From an uncultured Bacillota bacterium (GTDB lineage Bacteria > Bacillota > Limnochordia > Limnochordales > ZCTH02-B6), in assembly GCA_937975235.1 (NCBI GenBank), contig CALJUZ010000064.1:9306-73305 (forward strand): DNA of 64,000 nucleotides, given 5' to 3'. The position numbers and the translations under genes were made by a program. How positions within the stretch are numbered: position 1 is the stretch's first letter; every line of letters starts with the position of its first letter. The notes beneath the pieces were generated by a model. That model searched no databases, was not told the origin of the DNA, and was given only the letters and a program-made list of their open reading frames with translations. Below, piece by piece: positions 30,984 through 62,002 of this stretch.

Positions 30984-31808
30984 TCACGTCGTGGGCAGAT
31001 CCGCCTCGTGGGCCGCGGCCACCGTGTCCGCGACGATGCGCTCCCACGCCGCCGGGTCCCGGGCCGGAGCGCTCCGCCGCGCGCCGGCCAAATACTCGAT
31101 GTTGCCTTCGGGCCCACGCAGCGGCGAAAAGGTGAGATGCTCGGGCTCCAGGCCGCTGTCGCGCAGCGCGGCCAGGACGCGGAGGACGACCTCGCGGTGA
31201 ACGTCCGGATCTTTCACGACGCCCCGCGGCCCCACCCGTTCGGGACCGGCCTCGAACTGAGGTTTGATCAGGCAGATCAGTCGCCCGTCCGTCTTCATCA
31301 GGGGAACCACCGCGGGGAAAATTTTCGCCAAGGAGATGAACGACACGTCGATGACGACCCAGTCCACGGGCTCGGGCAAATCGCCGGGCTTCAGGTGGCG
31401 GGCGTTGGTACGCTCCATGACCACGACGCGCGGGTCGTTGCGCAGCCCCCAGTGCAGCTGTCCGTAGCCGACGTCCACGGCGTACACGCGCCGGGCGCCG
31501 TGCTGGAGCAGGCAGTCGGTGAAGCCGCCGGTGGACGCGCCCACGTCCAGCGCGACGGCGCCCGCGGGATCCCAGCCGAACGCGCGCAGCGCCTTCTCCA
31601 GCTTGAGCCCGCCGCGGCTGACGTACGGCATCGGATCGCCCCGCACCTCCACCCGGGCGTTCACCGGCACCATGGTGCCGGCCTTGTCCACCCGCCGGCC
31701 GTCCACGTACACGAGCCCGGCCATGATGGCCCCCAGCGCCTGCCGCCGGCTGGCGAAGGCTCCCCGTTCCACCAACAGAAGGTCGAGACGGCGCCGCTGC
31801 TCGCTCAC
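30984..31808 (-). CDS. tlyA: TlyA family rRNA (cytidine-2'-O)-methyltransferase
   Basis: From GTG 31808: S4-like N terminus (RLDLLLVERGAFASRRQALGAIMAGLVYVDG) and FtsJ-like SAM domain (LDVGASTGGFTDCLLQHGA). GTGA overlap with the upstream membrane-protein gene. Confidence 0.9.
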   Translation of the reverse strand: MSEQRRRLDLLLVERGAFASRRQALGAIMAGLVYVDGRRVDKAGTMVPVNARVEVRGDPMPYVSRGGLKLEKALRAFGWDPAGAVALDVGASTGGFTDCLLQHGARRVYAVDVGYGQLHWGLRNDPRVVVMERTNARHLKPGDLPEPVDWVVIDVSFISLAKIFPAVVPLMKTDGRLICLIKPQFEAGPERVGPRGVVKDPDVHREVVLRVLAALRDSGLEPEHLTFSPLRGPEGNIEYLAGARRSAPARDPAAWERIVADTVAAAHEADLPTT

Positions 31809-32473
31809 GACGTTCGGCCTCGCTTTGCGTTGTTGTTGCTTTGTCCCCGACGGGCGTTGCCGTTTTTTCGCCCGCGGCCGCGACGGGAACCGCCGGCGAA
31901 GCGGATGCCCGTCACCCGGCCGATCACGTGCAGGACCCGCCCCGACCACAGGACGATTTCGGTGCGCCGCTCAAACGCGATCGTCTTGGCGTACGCTTTC
32001 CCTCCCACGGCCAACGCGGCGATGACCGCGATGAGAAGAGTCGACAAGATCGTTTCGTTGAGGCCGGGATACGCGGTGACCAGGCGGAACACGATGGTGG
32101 CGCCGATGGCGCCGCTGAGGGTTCCCACCACGTCGCCCACGATGTCCAGCGTGAAGCTGGCCACCTGGTCTTGATGGCGCACCAGCCAGCTGGCTTCCCG
32201 CGCGCCGGGAACGCGCTGCACCGCCATCGCGTGGAACGGATCCTCGCGCGACGCGGTGGTGGCAACGCCAATCAGGTCAAACAGGATGCCGACGGCGACA
32301 ATGACCAGCAGAAGAAGAAAACTCGTGAAAAGGTCAAGCCAGGCCAGAAGACCGGTGCTCAGAAGGGAGAAGACGATGGAAGTGAAAAACGTCAGTATGC
32401 CGACGCGCCAAAAGCGACTCAGTTTTGCTGTCCACCGTCCGTGTGAAAAAAGAGGTGGCAAGTGGCCACGCAC
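31805..32473 (-). CDS. oapA: four-TM membrane protein with basic C-terminal tail, OapA-like (OLE-associated protein A candidate)
   Basis: Four hydrophobic helices (ILTFFTSIVFSLLSTGLLAWL / FLLLLVIVAVGILFDLIGVA / VASFTLDIVGDVVGTLSGAIGATIVF / ILSTLLIAVIAALAVGG) and an Arg/Gly/Lys/Asn-rich tail. Sits directly 3' of the structured non-coding region. Start unresolved (GTG 32473, TTG 32461 or CTG 32422). Confidence 0.6.
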   Translation of the reverse strand: MRGHLPPLFSHGRWTAKLSRFWRVGILTFFTSIVFSLLSTGLLAWLDLFTSFLLLLVIVAVGILFDLIGVATTASREDPFHAMAVQRVPGAREASWLVRHQDQVASFTLDIVGDVVGTLSGAIGATIVFRLVTAYPGLNETILSTLLIAVIAALAVGGKAYAKTIAFERRTEIVLWSGRVLHVIGRVTGIRFAGGSRRGRGRKNGNARRGQSNNNAKRGRTS

Positions 32474-32474
32474 C

Positions 32475-33081
32475 GGGTAAACCTTGTGGCTTAAGGTCCA
32501 GCAGGATTTCCCAACGCTCCTCCGCAGCGTCGCCGCCGCGGCGGTTTCCCCTTTCCGAGCGCTCTGCCGCGTCACCGCCGGCAGGGCTGGATTACCACTG
32601 AGCACACACCCTAATCCCCGGCGCGCTACCCCGCAGGGAACAGCCTAGGAGTTTTCCTCGGCGACGCTCATCGTCCCCTAGCCTCTTTTGCGCAACAATC
32701 TTCGAGCGGCAACGAACCCGCGGCCGTGGCCTTTGGCCCGCGGGTCTGAACCCGCTCTCCCGACTGCTCCGCTCAAGGCAGGCTACGCTGCACCCAACGC
32801 TCCCCGCACGGCGTGCGTGTCGCATCGAGCTGCAGGTTCTTCCCAAGTCGTAGCGACGGGGCCTCACGACCCGGCCGCCACGCACTTGGGTCTCCGCGGA
32901 AGCAGGGTCAACGCCTGCATGCCGTTGCAGATCGCCCCACTTCCTTAACCCCCAGCAGCAACCCCCGACTGGGCGTCGGGAGCCACCACCAGAGACTTCA
33001 TCGATGTGCCCTGTCCGGATTTTTAGGCCCGGCTTCGGAGACGCGAGCACCGACTAGGATACTGCGCCACTTGCCCTTCGC
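32475..33081 (-). ncRNA. ole: large structured non-coding RNA, OLE (ornate, large, extremophilic) RNA candidate
   Basis: About 600 nt between ispA and the OapA-like gene with no credible ORF. Composition is less GC-rich than the flanks, and many local and nested complementary segments are present. Size, strand and ispA / membrane protein / tlyA-nadK-recN context match what is known for OLE RNA. Ends are approximate. Confidence 0.6.
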
Positions 33082-33087
33082 AACGCC

Positions 33088-35987: not shown

Positions 35988-37079
35988 TCAGCGCTGTTCG
36001 CCCGGCGAGCCCAGCCACACGGCGCCGGCCAGCGCGACGCCGATGGCGTTGTCGACGCTGCAGCGCGGCGCAGCGAAAACGCAGCGCACGCCCAGCGGTG
36101 AGAGGGTCTCGGACAGCCGCCGGCGCAGCGCCTGGTTGGCCATGACGCCGCCCACGCCCAGAAACAGCGCGGGGGCACCTTCCGCCAGCACCTGGGCCGC
36201 CCAGCGCGACAAGCTGGCCGCGACGCACTCCTGGACCGCCGCGGCCACGTCCGCGGCCGCCACCCCCCGCTCCGTCAGCCGGGCCGCGGCCGTGTCGGGC
36301 CCGGAGAAGCTCAGGCGATGCCCGCGCACCGCCACCGGCAGCGGCGCCGCAGCCGGATCACCCTCGGCGGCCAGCCGCTCCAGATGGGGACCCGCGGGAA
36401 AGGGCAGTCCCAGGCGCACGCCCGCCCGGTCGATGAACTGCCCCGCGTACAGATCCTCCGACGCCGCCAGGGATTCGACGATCCAGCGGGCCGAAGCAAA
36501 CGGCTCTTCCGGCCCGTCGCCGGCCCGCCGCGTCCGCCGGGCCCGCAGCAGCTCCGTGGTGCCGCCCGATGCGTGCAGGACGACCACGTCGTCCACGTCG
36601 CGCCACAAAGCCGCGGCGGCGCCGTCCGCTTCGGTCCCCCCGGGCGCCGCCGACCACAGTCCCGCCCAAATATGGCCGTCCTGATGGGAAACGTCGATGA
36701 AGGGAACGCCGTGCCACGCGGCCAGGGCCCGGGCGAAGCCGGCGCCGGCCCGGAAGACGGGCATGTACGAGTCGGGCCGGGACCGCGGCGCGACGCTGGC
36801 CGCCACGGCCGCCAAAGGCAGCGCCCCGCCGCCCGGGCTCGCCGCGCCGGCGGACGCTGCCAACCAGGCCGCGGCGTCGGCCGCGGCGGCCTCCAGCAGC
36901 TCCGGCAAGCGGGTGACGTGCTGAAACACCGCGTCGGACTGGCGCAAGCCGCGCCGGCCCGCGGGCACCGCCAGCACCTGCCGGCGGTCGCTGACCAGCC
37001 GGCCGTCCACGGTCACCACGGCCACGGAAGTCGTGTACGCGCTGGTGTCGACTCCCAGCACCAAACGGTCTTCGCTCAT
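35988..37079 (-). CDS. TsaD/Kae1 (peptidase M22, ASKHA fold) family protein, divergent paralogue
   Basis: LGVDTSAYTTSVAVV, SHQDGH (HxxxH metal motif), HASGGTTE, DLYAGQFIDRAGVRLGLPFPAGPHLERLA, GGVMANQALR, CSVDNAIGVA follow the TsaD/Kae1 motif order. ATGA overlap with the nusB stop. Confidence 0.7.
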   Translation of the reverse strand: MSEDRLVLGVDTSAYTTSVAVVTVDGRLVSDRRQVLAVPAGRRGLRQSDAVFQHVTRLPELLEAAAADAAAWLAASAGAASPGGGALPLAAVAASVAPRSRPDSYMPVFRAGAGFARALAAWHGVPFIDVSHQDGHIWAGLWSAAPGGTEADGAAAALWRDVDDVVVLHASGGTTELLRARRTRRAGDGPEEPFASARWIVESLAASEDLYAGQFIDRAGVRLGLPFPAGPHLERLAAEGDPAAAPLPVAVRGHRLSFSGPDTAAARLTERGVAAADVAAAVQECVAASLSRWAAQVLAEGAPALFLGVGGVMANQALRRRLSETLSPLGVRCVFAAPRCSVDNAIGVALAGAVWLGSPGEQR

Positions 37080-38283: not shown

Positions 38284-38688
38284 CTACTTGACCCGGGGAT
38301 CCTCGGGCTGCTCCTCCGCTTGCGCAAAATGCACGCCCTGCACGTGGACGTTGACTTCGACCACCTGCAAGCCGGTCATGCTCTCCACGGCCCGCTTGAC
38401 GTTTTCCTGGATCTTCCACGCCACTTCGGGGATGCGCACGCCATAGTCAACGATGATGGACAAGTCCACCGCGGCCTGCTCCTCCCCCACTTCGACGCGG
38501 ACGCCTTTGGACAGGTTCTTGCGGCCCAGCATCTCCGCGACGCCGCTCGCGATGCCGCCGCTCATGCCCGCGACGCCTTCCACTTCCGTCGCGGCCAGCC
38601 CGGCCACGATGGAAACGACCTCGTTCGCAATCCGAATTTCGCCCAGGTCACTGCGTTCCGCCGCATTCGACACGTGTATCGCCTCCAT
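38284..38688 (-). CDS. asp23: Asp23/Gls24 family envelope stress protein
   Basis: GEIRIANEVVSIVAGLAATEVEGVAGM...KGVRVEVGEEQAAVDLSIIVDYGVRIPEVAWKIQENVKRAVESMTGL. Confidence 0.9.
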   Translation of the reverse strand: MEAIHVSNAAERSDLGEIRIANEVVSIVAGLAATEVEGVAGMSGGIASGVAEMLGRKNLSKGVRVEVGEEQAAVDLSIIVDYGVRIPEVAWKIQENVKRAVESMTGLQVVEVNVHVQGVHFAQAEEQPEDPRVK

Positions 38689-40561: not shown

Positions 40562-41230
40562 TTACCTCCCTGACGAAACGCCGTCAACGATAGTCACCGT
40601 CTCCCGCTTCACGCCCGCAATGCGGTGGGTCAGCTCGCCGATGAGCGCGGCCGCGGCCTGGTCCAGCACCGCGTCCACCACCACGTGGGCGCCCGCAGGG
40701 CTCAGCACCGCCACCGCGTCGTACCCGTGGGCCCGGAGCAGCTGTTCGATTTCCAGCTCCCGTGCCTCCAGCTCCCACAGCGCCAGCAGTTCCTCATGGG
40801 CCTCCCGCCGCCGCGCTTCGCCGGCGGCCGGGTCCAGCGCGGCCGCCTGCAGCAGCTCCGCCTGGCGCGAGCGCAGGCGCTCCCGCTCCAGGCGCAGGTC
40901 GTCGAAAGGATGAGACCGCGGCGGCGCGGAGGCAGGGCCTTCGGCCGCGGCCGGCGGCGCCGGCGTCAAGGAGACGGCGGCCGAGTCGTCCGCCGCCGGG
41001 CCCGACGCCGCCGCCGGCACGGCCAGTACGTCCGCGTCCGCCGGGGGCGCGACGGCGTCCGTCGCGGCCGGCCCGGGCGGCGCCTCGCCCTCCGGACGCT
41101 GCTGCCACCACGCGGCCAGCGCCAGGAAACCGACGGCCAGCGCCAGCAGCACCGCTTGCCAGGCGCGCCGGGAAAAGGTGACGAAATACACCCGGCCGCC
41201 GCTGTTTTCGCCTCGCACCGCTGCGTTCAT
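40562..41230 (-). CDS. spoIIIAH: stage III sporulation protein AH
   Basis: N-terminal TM, Pro/Ala-rich linker, C-terminal region ([28 protein letters not shown]) typical of SpoIIIAH. Last gene of the spoIIIA operon. Confidence 0.8.
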
Positions 41231-41303
41231 CGTCCTCGCTCCCTTCCGTTGAACTTCCCCTGCAGCCGTCGGGGCGGGCGCCGTCCCGCCCCTTGATGCG
41301 TCT

Positions 41304-41918
41304 TCACGGCTGCCGCGGCATGACGTACACCCGGTGGGCCGGCAGCCCCAGCAGCGTCATGACCGCGCGCGTGATTTCGTAGCGCCGCCGCGCGTCCCGG
41401 GCCGCATCGGTAATGACCAGCACCCCGGAAACGACGGGGGCGTGTTCCACCAGCACCACCGGTTCCTCCCGGCGCTGCTGGTCGCTGCGCACCAGCACCG
41501 GCTGGGCCGACCGCCGCTCGTCCAGCACGACGTCCCCGGTGCCCGCCGCGCCGGGAGCACCGCCGGTGCGGCGCTCGGTGGTCACGTGCTCCGCCAGCAC
41601 TCGCCGCGGGCCCGTCTCGACGGTGACCGACACGTGCACCGGAGCCGCACCGAAAAGCTGTCCCAGAGCGGCTTCCACCTGTCGCTCCAGCGCCCGCGCG
41701 TAGTCGTCCGCGGCGCCCGCGCCGCGGGCCGCGCCCGCCGCGGGCGCGGCCGGATCCAAGTGCGTTCGCTGGCCCACGTCCCCGGTCGGCCTCGGTCCAA
41801 ACGTCAAGAGCACCACGCCTGCTGCCAGCAAAATCAGCAGGTGGCCGAGATAACGGCGCTGCCCGTCGCTCAGCCGCCAGCGCCGCGCCCATCCGCGCAG
41901 GGGCTCCCGTTCCGTCAC
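41304..41918 (-). CDS. spoIIIAG: stage III sporulation protein AG
   Basis: TM anchor plus YARALERQVEAALGQL...VHVSVTVETG...SGVLVITDAARDARRRYEITRAVMTLLGLPAHRVYV. GTGA overlap with spoIIIAF. Confidence 0.85.
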   Translation of the reverse strand: MTEREPLRGWARRWRLSDGQRRYLGHLLILLAAGVVLLTFGPRPTGDVGQRTHLDPAAPAAGAARGAGAADDYARALERQVEAALGQLFGAAPVHVSVTVETGPRRVLAEHVTTERRTGGAPGAAGTGDVVLDERRSAQPVLVRSDQQRREEPVVLVEHAPVVSGVLVITDAARDARRRYEITRAVMTLLGLPAHRVYVMPRQP

Positions 41919-42442
41919 CGCTGCATGCCTCCTTGCCCACCGTGCTCCGCGGCCCGAACCCGCACCTGTTCGGGCCGGAGGCCGAGGTAGCCGGCGATGA
42001 GCCGGACGGCTCGATCCGCGTCCACGGGCCCGTCCGCCGGCCCGACGGTCGCGTCGATGCCCTCGATGCCGCCGTCGGGCCGCCAGCGCACGTCCAGCTG
42101 CTCGGGCGCCGCGCCCAAGGCTAGCTCCACCACGCCCGCCACGTGCTCGTAGGCCCGCCGCCGGCCCTCCTCCGCCACCCGCTCCAGCGCCCGCCGGGCC
42201 AGGAGCTCGCCCTCGGCCGCCACGTTCTCCGCGCCCTGCGGGAAACCGCCGAACCAGTCCGCGTCACCCGGGTCCCAGCGCAGCAGCTGCAGCGCCGGCG
42301 CCAGCAGCGCGCCGATGACGACCAAGCCCGCCATGAAGCGGACGTAATCCCGCAGCCGGTTTTCCGGCAGGAGCATGTACGCGGCGCTGACGAAAAAGAC
42401 GACGACCACCAAATCCCGCACCCAGCCCGCCAGCCAGCCCAC
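41915..42442 (-). CDS. spoIIIAF: stage III sporulation protein AF
   Basis: WVRDLVVVVFFVSAAYMLLPENRLRDYVRFMAGLVVIGALLAP matches the SpoIIIAF N terminus. GTG start after GGAAGGAGGGA. Confidence 0.8.
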   Translation of the reverse strand: MGWLAGWVRDLVVVVFFVSAAYMLLPENRLRDYVRFMAGLVVIGALLAPALQLLRWDPGDADWFGGFPQGAENVAAEGELLARRALERVAEEGRRRAYEHVAGVVELALGAAPEQLDVRWRPDGGIEGIDATVGPADGPVDADRAVRLIAGYLGLRPEQVRVRAAEHGGQGGMQR

Positions 42443-42463
42443 GCCGCAGTCCCTCCTTCCGCG

Positions 42464-43684
42464 TCAGCGGACCAGCGCCGCCCAGTTGCCGATGCCGACG
42501 ACGACGGTAATGACCACGAAAAACATCAGCGCCGCCGCGGCCACCGCCGCCATGAGCAGCGTCAGCGTCTGGGCCATGGCGCCCAGCGCGTCCACCAGGC
42601 GGGGATCGCTGATGGGCTGCACCACGGCGGTGGCGACGCGGTAGATGATGACCAGGGCGAAGATCTTCATCAGCGGAAAAGCCAGCAGCACCAGCAGCGT
42701 CGCCATGCCGAACGCGCCGACGGCGTTCTTGATGAGCAGCGAGCCGCCCAGGACGACCTCCATCGCGTCGGCCATCATGCCGCCGATGACCGGGATGAAC
42801 GAGCCGGCCAGAAATTTGGTCGTTCTCAGCGCGATGCCGTCGGCCACCGGCGCGATGGCGCCCCGGATAACCATGACGCCCAGAAACAGCGTCAAAAACA
42901 GCCCCAGGGCCGTCGTCGCGGCCTGCCGGAGCAAATCGGCGATGCGAGAGACGGGAAACCCGGCCGCGACGCGGCCCACCACCCCGAGCACCGCCGCGAA
43001 AAACAGCAGCGGAAACACGACTTGTTCGATCAAGCTGGCCACCAGCGTCACCACCGTCAGGAGCAGCGGATGAAACAGGGCGGCGCTGGAGACCGCGCCC
43101 ACCGCGGCCAGCATGGTGGACAGCAGGGGCAGCAGCGCCAGCATAAAGGCGCTCATGTCGGCCAGGACGCCCCGCCCCACCTCCGCCGCCGCGGAGAAGC
43201 TTTGCAGCGCGACGAAGATGATGACCATGTACGCGACCAGAAATCCGAACTCCGTGGCCGCCGGCGAAAAGGAGCCGGCCGCGTTGTGCAGCAAGGCGCA
43301 CAAGACGGCCAGCACGATGAGCTGTCCCAGCAGGCGGGACTGCAGCAGCACCTCGGCCAGCAAAAACCGCGTCAGCTCCCGGAGCAGCTCCGCCGGGTGC
43401 AGCCGCAGGCCGCCTTGCGGGTCCACGATGACGTCGCGGACGCTGCGGGCAGGCAGCCGTTCCCGGACGTCGTCGTCCAGCCCCGCCAAAATCTCCTCCA
43501 GCGGCCGCAGGTCTAGGTGGCGCACTTGCTCGTCCACCGCCGCCTGCAGCGGATCCAGCGAGTCCGCCGGGCCGGCCGCGGGCATTTTCACCGGCACTGC
43601 GGCCGCGGGCCCGGGCGTCCAAAGGGCCGCCGTCACCACCAGCAGCGCTGACGCGACGACGATGCCCCTCCGCCTCCTCTGCAC
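42464..43684 (-). CDS. spoIIIAE: stage III sporulation protein AE
   Basis: 406 aa polytopic membrane protein with signal sequence, in position five of the spoIIIA operon. Confidence 0.9.
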   Translation of the reverse strand: MQRRRRGIVVASALLVVTAALWTPGPAAAVPVKMPAAGPADSLDPLQAAVDEQVRHLDLRPLEEILAGLDDDVRERLPARSVRDVIVDPQGGLRLHPAELLRELTRFLLAEVLLQSRLLGQLIVLAVLCALLHNAAGSFSPAATEFGFLVAYMVIIFVALQSFSAAAEVGRGVLADMSAFMLALLPLLSTMLAAVGAVSSAALFHPLLLTVVTLVASLIEQVVFPLLFFAAVLGVVGRVAAGFPVSRIADLLRQAATTALGLFLTLFLGVMVIRGAIAPVADGIALRTTKFLAGSFIPVIGGMMADAMEVVLGGSLLIKNAVGAFGMATLLVLLAFPLMKIFALVIIYRVATAVVQPISDPRLVDALGAMAQTLTLLMAAVAAAALMFFVVITVVVGIGNWAALVR

Positions 43685-61779: not shown

Positions 61780-62002
61780 AAAAAACGGGAGCGTCGCTCC
61801 CGAAGAAGTACCCCGCCATGCCGCTGAACCGACCTTAATGAACCTGCGCTCAAGCAGGTGGGTGTCCTCCTGGGCGCTTGTGAGCTTCCCCGTCAGGCGA
61901 GGCCTGCTCGCCACGCCCAGAGTCCAGACTCCCAATGTAGTAGGTGTTCGGTCATTAATAGGTCCGGTTGCATGGCGCACACAGCAGGGCATGTGTGTCC
62001 GC
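61780..62002 (-). ncRNA. ssrS: 6S RNA-like small RNA
   Basis: Lies in the 431-nt aspS-rarA gap. 5' arm CGCCAUGC-AACCGGACC-..-UUAAUGACC pairs with 3' arm GGUUCAUUAA-GGUCGGUU-..-GCAUGGCG. A large asymmetric internal bubble carries an ACCUGC/GCAGGU hairpin on its 3' side, and there is a distal CUGGGCG/CGCCCAG stem. Ends in CGGGAGC-GAC-GCUCCCG plus seven U. Confidence 0.6.

Follow-up and report, generated by a model that had tools for sequence, protein, structure and literature searches.

OapA and the OLE RNA

The membrane protein OapA of Halalkalibacter halodurans binds the ornate, large, extremophilic (OLE) RNA, two proteins to each RNA molecule, and keeps it at the membrane, and the two aspartates of its DxxxD motif are functionally critical. 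Its four helices, the DxxxD motif (PMC9723947, PMC11332333), its relationship with the CNNM proteins and its positive cytoplasmic face have already been published (PMC11332333, PMC9723947, PMC12265935). The ole gene of this bacterium is embedded in a large operon and its product is processed, while the oapB and oapC genes lie elsewhere in the genome, away from the ole locus (PMC9723947). The dxs gene has been described as "often" adjacent to the OLE/oapA locus (PMC10898510). As OapA anchors one of the largest bacterial RNAs of unknown function, its exact N-terminus matters, and current models debate the first helix as a signal sequence as well as how OLE crosses the membrane (PMC12265935). Here, we analyze the oapA locus carried by a 64,000-nucleotide stretch of DNA (hereafter the window) from an uncultured Bacillota bacterium of the order Limnochordales (assembly GCA_937975235.1, contig CALJUZ010000064.1, positions 9,306 to 73,305 of the forward strand). 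An earlier reading of the letters alone, referred to below as the original prediction, had recognized downstream of a structured RNA an open reading frame (ORF) resembling oapA and devoid of a canonical start codon. Taken as one explanation, the identification of this ORF as oapA together with a translation start at a CUG codon, at position 32422, is in our judgment probable. All positions are those of the window, and all the features described lie on its minus strand.

A conserved CTG codon at the 5' end of oapA

The structured RNA of the original prediction is OLE, and the ORF that ends at position 31805 sits at the position expected for oapA, directly downstream of OLE, in tandem and on the same strand (Table 1). 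Pairwise alignment with the OapA protein of Halalkalibacter wakoensis reports 36% identity over 197 amino acids (E 5e-37), thereby linking the ORF to the characterized OapA lineage. In total, 94 homologues were found, many of them adjoining OLE, and a genome scan returned 556 stretches that encode OapA relatives. The closest named relatives are Limnochordia and Limnochordales metagenome-assembled genomes (45-58% identity). The ORF is therefore oapA of an uncultured high-GC Bacillota organism, and its product a typical representative of the known OapA family, as had been proposed: homology, the position next to OLE, the DxxxD motif, the topology and the fold all agree. This assignment is correct but belongs to already-known biology.

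The 5' end of the gene is less ordinary. The reading frame is open up to position 32605, and its only ATG, GTG or TTG codons before residue 66 are GTG 32605, GTG 32473 and TTG 32461; between the last of these and the ATG of the "HAM" motif, which comes after ~65 codons of the protein, the frame has none of the three codons. The original prediction had already noted that no ATG is available near the first helix and had listed GTG 32473, TTG 32461 and CTG 32422, the last preceded by GGTGGA, as in-frame options, and comparison with relatives singles out this CTG. Since the genome scan of GTDB reports no close relative (best 49% identity over the first query), metagenome contigs from Logan and JGI were used for all close comparisons. 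The junction DNA of 11 relatives (57-81% protein identity) was compared codon by codon with that of the window, which makes 12 lineages; the loci are labelled L001-L080 for the GTDB oapA loci and L081-L090 for the Logan contigs of relatives, L091 being Logan SRR24044294.

The hexanucleotide AAA-CTG (32425-32420) is invariant in the 12 lineages, and so is a GGAYGGTG motif located 9-10 nt upstream of the CTG. At seven other sites where leucine is invariant, three to six codons are used per site, and at invariant lysine sites AAA and AAG occur about equally. The retention of CTG and of the preceding AAA in 12/12 lineages, while other leucine and lysine sites vary, thus indicates that the constraint bears on the nucleotides and not on the amino acids. 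Right after the CTG the situation is reversed, as the arginine two codons further on is encoded by CGC, CGG, CGA, CGT or AGG among the 12 lineages, an indication that protein-level selection has already begun there. The element upstream of the CTG resembles a Shine-Dalgarno (SD) sequence: the duplex between GGACGGUGG and the canonical Bacillota anti-SD amounts to -10.4 kcal/mol in the window, and to between -9.6 and -16.7 kcal/mol across the 12 lineages. The neighbouring starts in the window (tlyA, recN, xseA, xseB, ispA and argR) have comparable SD energies of -8.6 to -11.8 kcal/mol. An equally good upstream SD match is found for 5.7% of the CTG triplets that the window contains. The combination of an SD with a CTG alone is therefore not rare, and its significance rests on the conservation across 12 lineages, not on any single sequence. 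From this conservation, CTG 32422 is likely the start of a 205-residue OapA in the window and in its 11 closest relatives; we infer that the CUG is used, that the upstream motif serves as its SD and that this arrangement may be aimed at a low or tunable expression.

Of note, a public metagenome contig (L095, JGI Ga0079223_10029652) encodes an OapA protein 100% identical to that of the window, preceded by an identical 60-nt junction. The organism has thus been sampled independently, and a sequencing error does not account for its unusual start region. Among the other contigs of this metagenome scan, L096 and L097 resemble clade members already sampled and L098 is distant and has an ATG start, so that the four contigs L095-L098 added no new start-site variant.

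Several points weigh against the CUG start. The spacer is long, at 9-10 nt counted from GGTG or 11-12 nt counted from the GGAGG-equivalent position, the usual optimum being 7-9 nt. The anti-SD was assumed to be that of the canonical Bacillota 16S 3' end, the window being devoid of a 16S gene. The GTG within GGAYGGTG is in frame in L085, L093 and L094, three relatives that may use this canonical start 4-5 codons upstream of the CTG; eight taxa, the window among them, have it out of frame, and in L087 a TAG follows it. The GGAYGGTG motif might also owe its conservation to something else. Common descent of the 12 lineages accounts for part of the invariance, although the internal control sites, which share the same phylogeny, do vary. 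Lastly, CUG initiation reaches ~1-2% of that of AUG in E. coli (bioRxiv 10.1101/063800), a figure that comes from E. coli and not from the host phylum.

Alternative readings of the 5' end

A start located upstream, inside OLE, at GTG 32473, TTG 32461 or GTG 32605, would yield a protein of 219-266 residues and would make OLE folding a gate for translation. No other canonical start codons are available, the frame stays open all the way to the last of them, and the gene calls P0001-P0003 use such starts. However, two relatives carry in-frame stops between the upstream sites and the protein body: L087 reads GTG TAG AGT AAA CTG, with a TAG three codons before the CTG, and L092 reads CGG TGA AAA GCA AAA CTG, with a TGA four codons before it, so that nothing upstream can start there. 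Nor is oapA kept in a constant frame relative to OLE, as indels of +7 and -1 nt (in the T-run) and of ~+75 nt (in L091) occur in relatives between OLE and the SD motif; as a result, neither GTG 32473 nor TTG 32461 stays in frame in relatives, and the latter reads CTC-G in L085 and L094. Furthermore, the SD energies of these two codons are only -3.8 and -6.1 kcal/mol, respectively, GTG 32473 falls within a paired OLE helix, and homologues outside the clade have N-termini that begin just 13-19 residues before the "TF" anchor. An upstream start is, on this evidence, extremely unlikely, and the 266-residue ORF that reads into OLE is an artefact. The related proposal of the original prediction, that the 5' end of oapA overlaps or is controlled by the 3' end of OLE, is not supported. 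The last base-paired OLE position (~32467, from the cmscan structure line) and the end of the Rfam model (32446) both precede the SD-like element and the CTG, and the junction folds no better than shuffled sequence (z = -0.41), which rejects a sequestration of the SD by structure. In L091, the Rfam OLE match ends at nt 104 and the SD begins at nt 180, the SD-CTG module being otherwise identical. The ~75 nt inserted in this contig between OLE and the SD-CTG module (nt 104-180) are unrelated in sequence, and a gene caller has put an 86-residue ORF across them.

Another possibility is that translation starts at the GTG embedded in the SD-like element (32435-32433), out of frame in the window, and that a programmed +1 shift on the A-run (AAA-A-CUG) restores the frame. 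This GTG is invariant (12/12), in the three relatives where it is in frame it is sometimes preceded by an ATG, and most of the taxa that have it out of frame show an AAAA run ahead of the CTG. The same GTG has no SD of its own upstream (-1.5 kcal/mol in the window), it runs directly into the TAG of L087, and L088 has GAA-ACT and hence no slippery run; besides, three mechanisms would be needed within one clade, where the CUG start needs one. We regard such a frameshift as very unlikely. Somewhat different is a start downstream of CTG 32422, at the near-cognate codons ATA 32398 or CTG 32395 just before "TF", by which the basic N-terminus would be lost. Some relatives indeed have a TTG, GTG or ATG nearby, and gene callers use them (P0004-P0008), but the site of these canonical codons changes from one species to another, with TGG at the commonest site in the window, and neither near-cognate codon has an SD (~-2 kcal/mol). 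In addition, the codons between CTG 32422 and this point are already conserved at the protein level, R, F, R and V being encoded by varying synonymous codons, which leaves a downstream start improbable. The loss of a canonical start and the missing adjacent dxs could finally be taken as the first signs that oapA is decaying, or is not translated, in this lineage. This is scarcely credible: the ORF is intact in 12 lineages, its variable sites over 40 codons are strongly biased to the third codon position (27, 15 and 37 at positions 1, 2 and 3), the functional motifs are invariant, and OLE itself is full length and high scoring. Purifying selection thus in practice already contradicts decay.

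If the CUG 32422 start is retained, all automated gene calls in the clade would be wrong at their 5' end, being either fused to OLE (212-266 residues) or truncated in helix 1. Among P0001, P0002, P0003, P0005 and P0007-P0009, three run 30-60 codons into OLE and four begin inside helix 1. As OLE is conserved, residues 2-60 of the long ORF even gave "protein" matches by tblastn in distant phyla, and OLE-fused chimeras of this kind bring into protein databases conserved "peptides" that correspond to RNA, a form of contamination. The practical result of this work is the annotation correction of oapA 5' ends in this clade. Of note, most of the L081-L090 contigs end ~400-550 nt upstream of oapA, inside OLE; the strong conservation of this RNA may cause assemblies to break there in samples with several related strains.

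Apparent bias to weak starts across the OapA family

The start codons of oapA were also compared at the scale of the family, by choosing the SD-supported start in the 80 loci of GTDB species representatives. Of these, 75 were scorable for oapA, and the same procedure applied to tlyA left 56 species. The oapA starts comprise 44 TTG, 28 ATG and 3 GTG, those of tlyA at the same loci 35 ATG, 11 TTG and 10 GTG. For the excess of TTG at oapA (44/75 against 11/56), Fisher's test gives p = 7e-6 (phylogeny not corrected for), and at 14 loci an in-frame stop excludes every canonical oapA start other than TTG. Among annotated bacterial genes overall, TTG accounts for ~4% of starts (bioRxiv 10.1101/063800). 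Weak initiation thus looks like a general property of oapA, of which the CUG of the present clade, at ~1-2% of AUG in E. coli, would be the extreme case, and the codon counts suggest a family-wide selection for weak oapA initiation across Bacillota. A second, independent oapA without canonical start is found in L013 (DUSO01000154.1), where no ATG, GTG or TTG exists between an in-frame stop and helix 1, and where an ATC located ~15 codons before "TF" and preceded by an SD of -12.5 kcal/mol is the only start candidate.

These observations can be assembled into a tentative scheme. The oapA gene would be co-transcribed directly behind OLE, and translation would begin at CUG 32422, positioned by the bulged SD element GGA(C)GGUGG 9-10 nt upstream. 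The 205-residue product would begin with a short basic segment, followed by four transmembrane helices, an amphipathic helix and, in the cytoplasm, a disordered tail rich in Arg and Gly, and the stop of oapA would be coupled to the start of tlyA via GTGA. Within a transcript that also carries a very abundant and stable RNA, the near-cognate start would throttle OapA synthesis: with OLE and oapA co-transcribed, it is plausible that the strength of initiation limits the amount of membrane protein made. The same throttling logic would explain the UUG start of most other oapA genes. Taken together, the conserved CUG and the weak starts suggest that the amount of OapA made per OLE is adjusted at the initiation step.

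Near-cognate starts respond unusually strongly to initiation-fidelity factors. The ribosomal protein bS21, a modulator of SD/anti-SD engagement, is a binding partner of the OLE particle (PMC12054373), and with both facts in hand OapA synthesis could be feedback-controlled. In such a scheme, weak oapA initiation (CUG in the clade, UUG in most lineages and possibly AUC in L013) would be a selected regulatory feature, setting the OapA-to-OLE ratio from a single transcript in response to the state of the OLE particle or to translational stress. We consider this extension doubtful.

Topology, fold and C-terminal tail of the protein

In this protein of about 20 kDa, the four transmembrane helices of the original prediction are found both by hydropathy analysis (segments 7-29, 20-59, 94-116 and 119-145, numbered from CTG 32422) and in an AlphaFold2 model built with 81 homologues (predicted local distance difference test score, pLDDT, 87.7), whose long helices are listed in Table 1. 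The LDIVGDV segment that the original prediction had pointed out is present at the start of the third long helix, its two aspartate codons being located at 32146-32144 and 32134-32132, and both aspartates (D93 and D97) are invariant among the 81 aligned homologues. Pairwise alignment with the H. wakoensis protein matches them to D100 and D104 of Halalkalibacter OapA. These residues are those replaced in PM1 (D100A/D104A), a dominant-negative OapA mutant of H. halodurans (PMC9723947).

Pfam analysis reports a sub-threshold match with CNNM (PF01595; 22.4 bits against a gathering cutoff of 28.4, E 1e-4), a similarity that is typical of OapA (PMC11332333). The top four Foldseek hits in the PDB belong to the archaeal CNNM protein MtCorB (7m1t/7m1u), with a probability of 0.99-1.0 but with E values of 0.013-0.2 and TM-scores of 0.41-0.45; the same top structural match has been reported for H. 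halodurans OapA (PMC11332333). No NCBIfam model matches the OapA-like protein, and a profile search of PDB sequences did not return any match at E <= 1. Pfam does not report any CBS pair or CorC/HlyC domain, the protein ending 54 residues past transmembrane helix 4. OapA is distantly related to the membrane domain of the CNNM/CorB/MpfA magnesium transporters. The protein is not a member of the CNNM/MpfA family proper, as it scores below the Pfam threshold, is devoid of CBS/CorC domains, possesses an extra N-terminal helix and contains DxxxD.

The C-terminal tail (AGGSRRGRGRKNGNARRGQSNNNAKRGRTS) is rich in Arg, Gly, Lys and Asn, as stated in the original prediction, its last 30 residues comprising 10 Lys or Arg, 7 Gly, 5 Asn and no Asp or Glu, and it is predicted to be disordered (pLDDT 56-59). 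Among ~90 OapA sequences, most end with a Lys/Arg-rich, low-complexity tail of 8-38 residues with few acidic residues, and ~10 have no tail; this basic tail is an ordinary variation within the family. OapA tails are Lys-rich in low-GC genomes whereas that of the window is Arg/Gly-rich, so its "RGG-like" look is largely compositional. By the positive-inside rule only, the tail would reside on the cytoplasmic side as part of a cluster of positive charges.

Genomic organization of the locus

The coordinates of the features are collected in Table 1. On the minus strand, OLE is preceded by spoIIIAE-AH, accB, accC, an Asp23/YqhY-like gene, nusB, a TsaD-like gene, xseA, xseB and ispA, and it is followed by oapA, tlyA, nadK, argR and recN. 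No promoter-like site was found by a scan between OLE and oapA, which makes co-transcription by read-through the simplest assumption, in line with the large operon reported around ole in H. halodurans (PMC9723947). The terminator-like element at the end of OLE consists of a 5-bp hairpin (GTGGC/GCCAC, 32469-32455) followed by a T-run (32451-32446). Three such sites are observed by the consensus scan for 1.7 expected, which is not significant alone; the hairpin is within chance expectation, and no function is claimed for it.

Table 1. Features of the OLE-oapA-tlyA region of the window
Feature	Position	Strand	Evidence
OLE RNA, full length	32446-33086	minus	Rfam RF01071, 445 bits, E 2e-127, model 1-616
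Outer long-range OLE helix, 3' strand; holds in-frame GTG 32473-32471	32467-32477	minus	cmscan structure line
Weak terminator-like element with in-frame TTG 32461	32446-32469	minus	consensus scan
Spurious 5' extension through the 3' third of OLE, in the 266-residue call P0001	32423-32605	minus	frame without stop
SD-like element GGACGGTGG with out-of-frame GTG 32435-32433	32432-32440	minus	GGAYGGTG invariant 12/12
Proposed CTG (CUG) initiation codon of oapA	32420-32422	minus	CTG in 12/12 relatives
oapA coding sequence as re-annotated, 205 residues + TGA	31805-32422	minus	homology, junction comparison, AlphaFold2 model
Transmembrane helix 1 (residues 2-28)	32339-32419	minus	AlphaFold2 helix and hydropathy
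Transmembrane helix 2 (residues 31-57)	32252-32332	minus	AlphaFold2 helix and hydropathy
Transmembrane helix 3 (residues 84-117), bears DxxxD	32072-32173	minus	AlphaFold2 helix and hydropathy
DxxxD motif (D93, D97)	32132-32146	minus	invariant in 81/81 aligned homologues
Transmembrane helix 4 (residues 123-151), invariant VGGKA..K motif	31970-32056	minus	homologue alignment and AlphaFold2
Disordered Arg/Gly/Asn-rich basic C-terminal tail (residues 172-205)	31808-31909	minus	pLDDT 56-59, composition
tlyA (rRNA 2'-O-methyltransferase), GTG start	30984-31808	minus	TIGR00478, 239 bits

The original prediction was right that dxs is missing between oapA and tlyA, and tblastn does not return any match to a Dxs query anywhere in the window. 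The absence is however not anomalous. Among the 80 GTDB species representatives, oapA is followed by dxs in 68 and directly by tlyA in 9 (Thermosediminibacter and relatives, Tissierellaceae, a Limnochordales genome, and Virgibacillus/Oceanobacillus), and all 11 close relatives possess the order oapA-tlyA-nadK-argR-recN without dxs. The absence of dxs is thus a recurrent, lineage-wide variant. The overlap of the oapA stop with the tlyA start, also noted originally, is read directly from the sequence: the TGA of oapA (31807-31805) and the GTG of tlyA (31808-31806) share GTGA (31808-31805). As this 4-nt overlap (GTGA or ATGA) is found in the window and in 10/11 relatives, it suggests that TlyA translation is coupled to that of OapA in this lineage, which carries no dxs at the locus.

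Further observations concern the surroundings of the locus. The Asp23-family (YqhY-like) gene (38284-38688, minus) is located ~5 kb upstream in the same orientation, and yqhY is among the genes most associated with OLE (PMC12265935). The accB, accC and nusB genes follow the classical Bacillota order, but a TsaD-like gene (35988-37079) and not folD lies between nusB and xseA. Homologues of spoIIIAE, AF and AH (40562-43684, minus) are present, which makes the organism probably an endospore former. A full-length 6S RNA is found at 61806-61993 (minus; Rfam RF00013, 104 bits).

Comparison with known systems

The analysis establishes the OapA identity of the protein, its DxxxD motif, its fold, the gene order and the nucleotide conservation around the CTG, while the CUG start is the only part of this picture that is absent from the literature searched. 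What is new is thus the prediction, well supported by the sequence comparisons, of a clade-conserved CUG start, together with the corrected gene calls it would entail and the apparent family-wide bias towards weak starts. The biological result is modest.

Among the CNNM/CorB/CorC/MpfA Mg2+ transporters, MtCorB is the best structural match of the window protein, with a TM-score of only 0.41-0.45, and the sequence similarity with Pfam CNNM is weak and below the gathering threshold. DxxxD is present in the window protein, whereas CNNM domains are devoid of it (PMC11332333). The two further differ by the CBS pair and the CorC/HlyC domain, absent here, and by the extra N-terminal transmembrane helix, present here.

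The infC gene, which encodes initiation factor 3 (IF3), has a conserved non-canonical AUU start and is autoregulated. Genes of this type share with the predicted oapA start a near-cognate codon that is conserved across species beside an apparently good SD, an arrangement that implies selection for a weak or factor-sensitive initiation. The codon is however AUU in infC and CUG here, the use of the latter being predicted from comparative sequence only, and the regulatory loop is that of infC.

The closest described system remains OapA of H. halodurans (BH2780). Both genes are directly downstream of OLE and encode proteins of ~200 residues with four transmembrane helices, the DxxxD, PFHAMA and VGGKA..K motifs, a basic C-terminal region, a weak sequence similarity with CNNM and a predicted fold resembling that of CorB. 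In contrast with the window, where the start is likely a CTG and dxs is missing, the Halalkalibacter orthologues (L045 and L060) have an ATG start with a normal SD and are followed by dxs. Unlike in Halalkalibacter, the stop of the window oapA overlaps tlyA, and the tail of its product is Arg/Gly-rich instead of Lys-rich and comprises 30 residues instead of 16.

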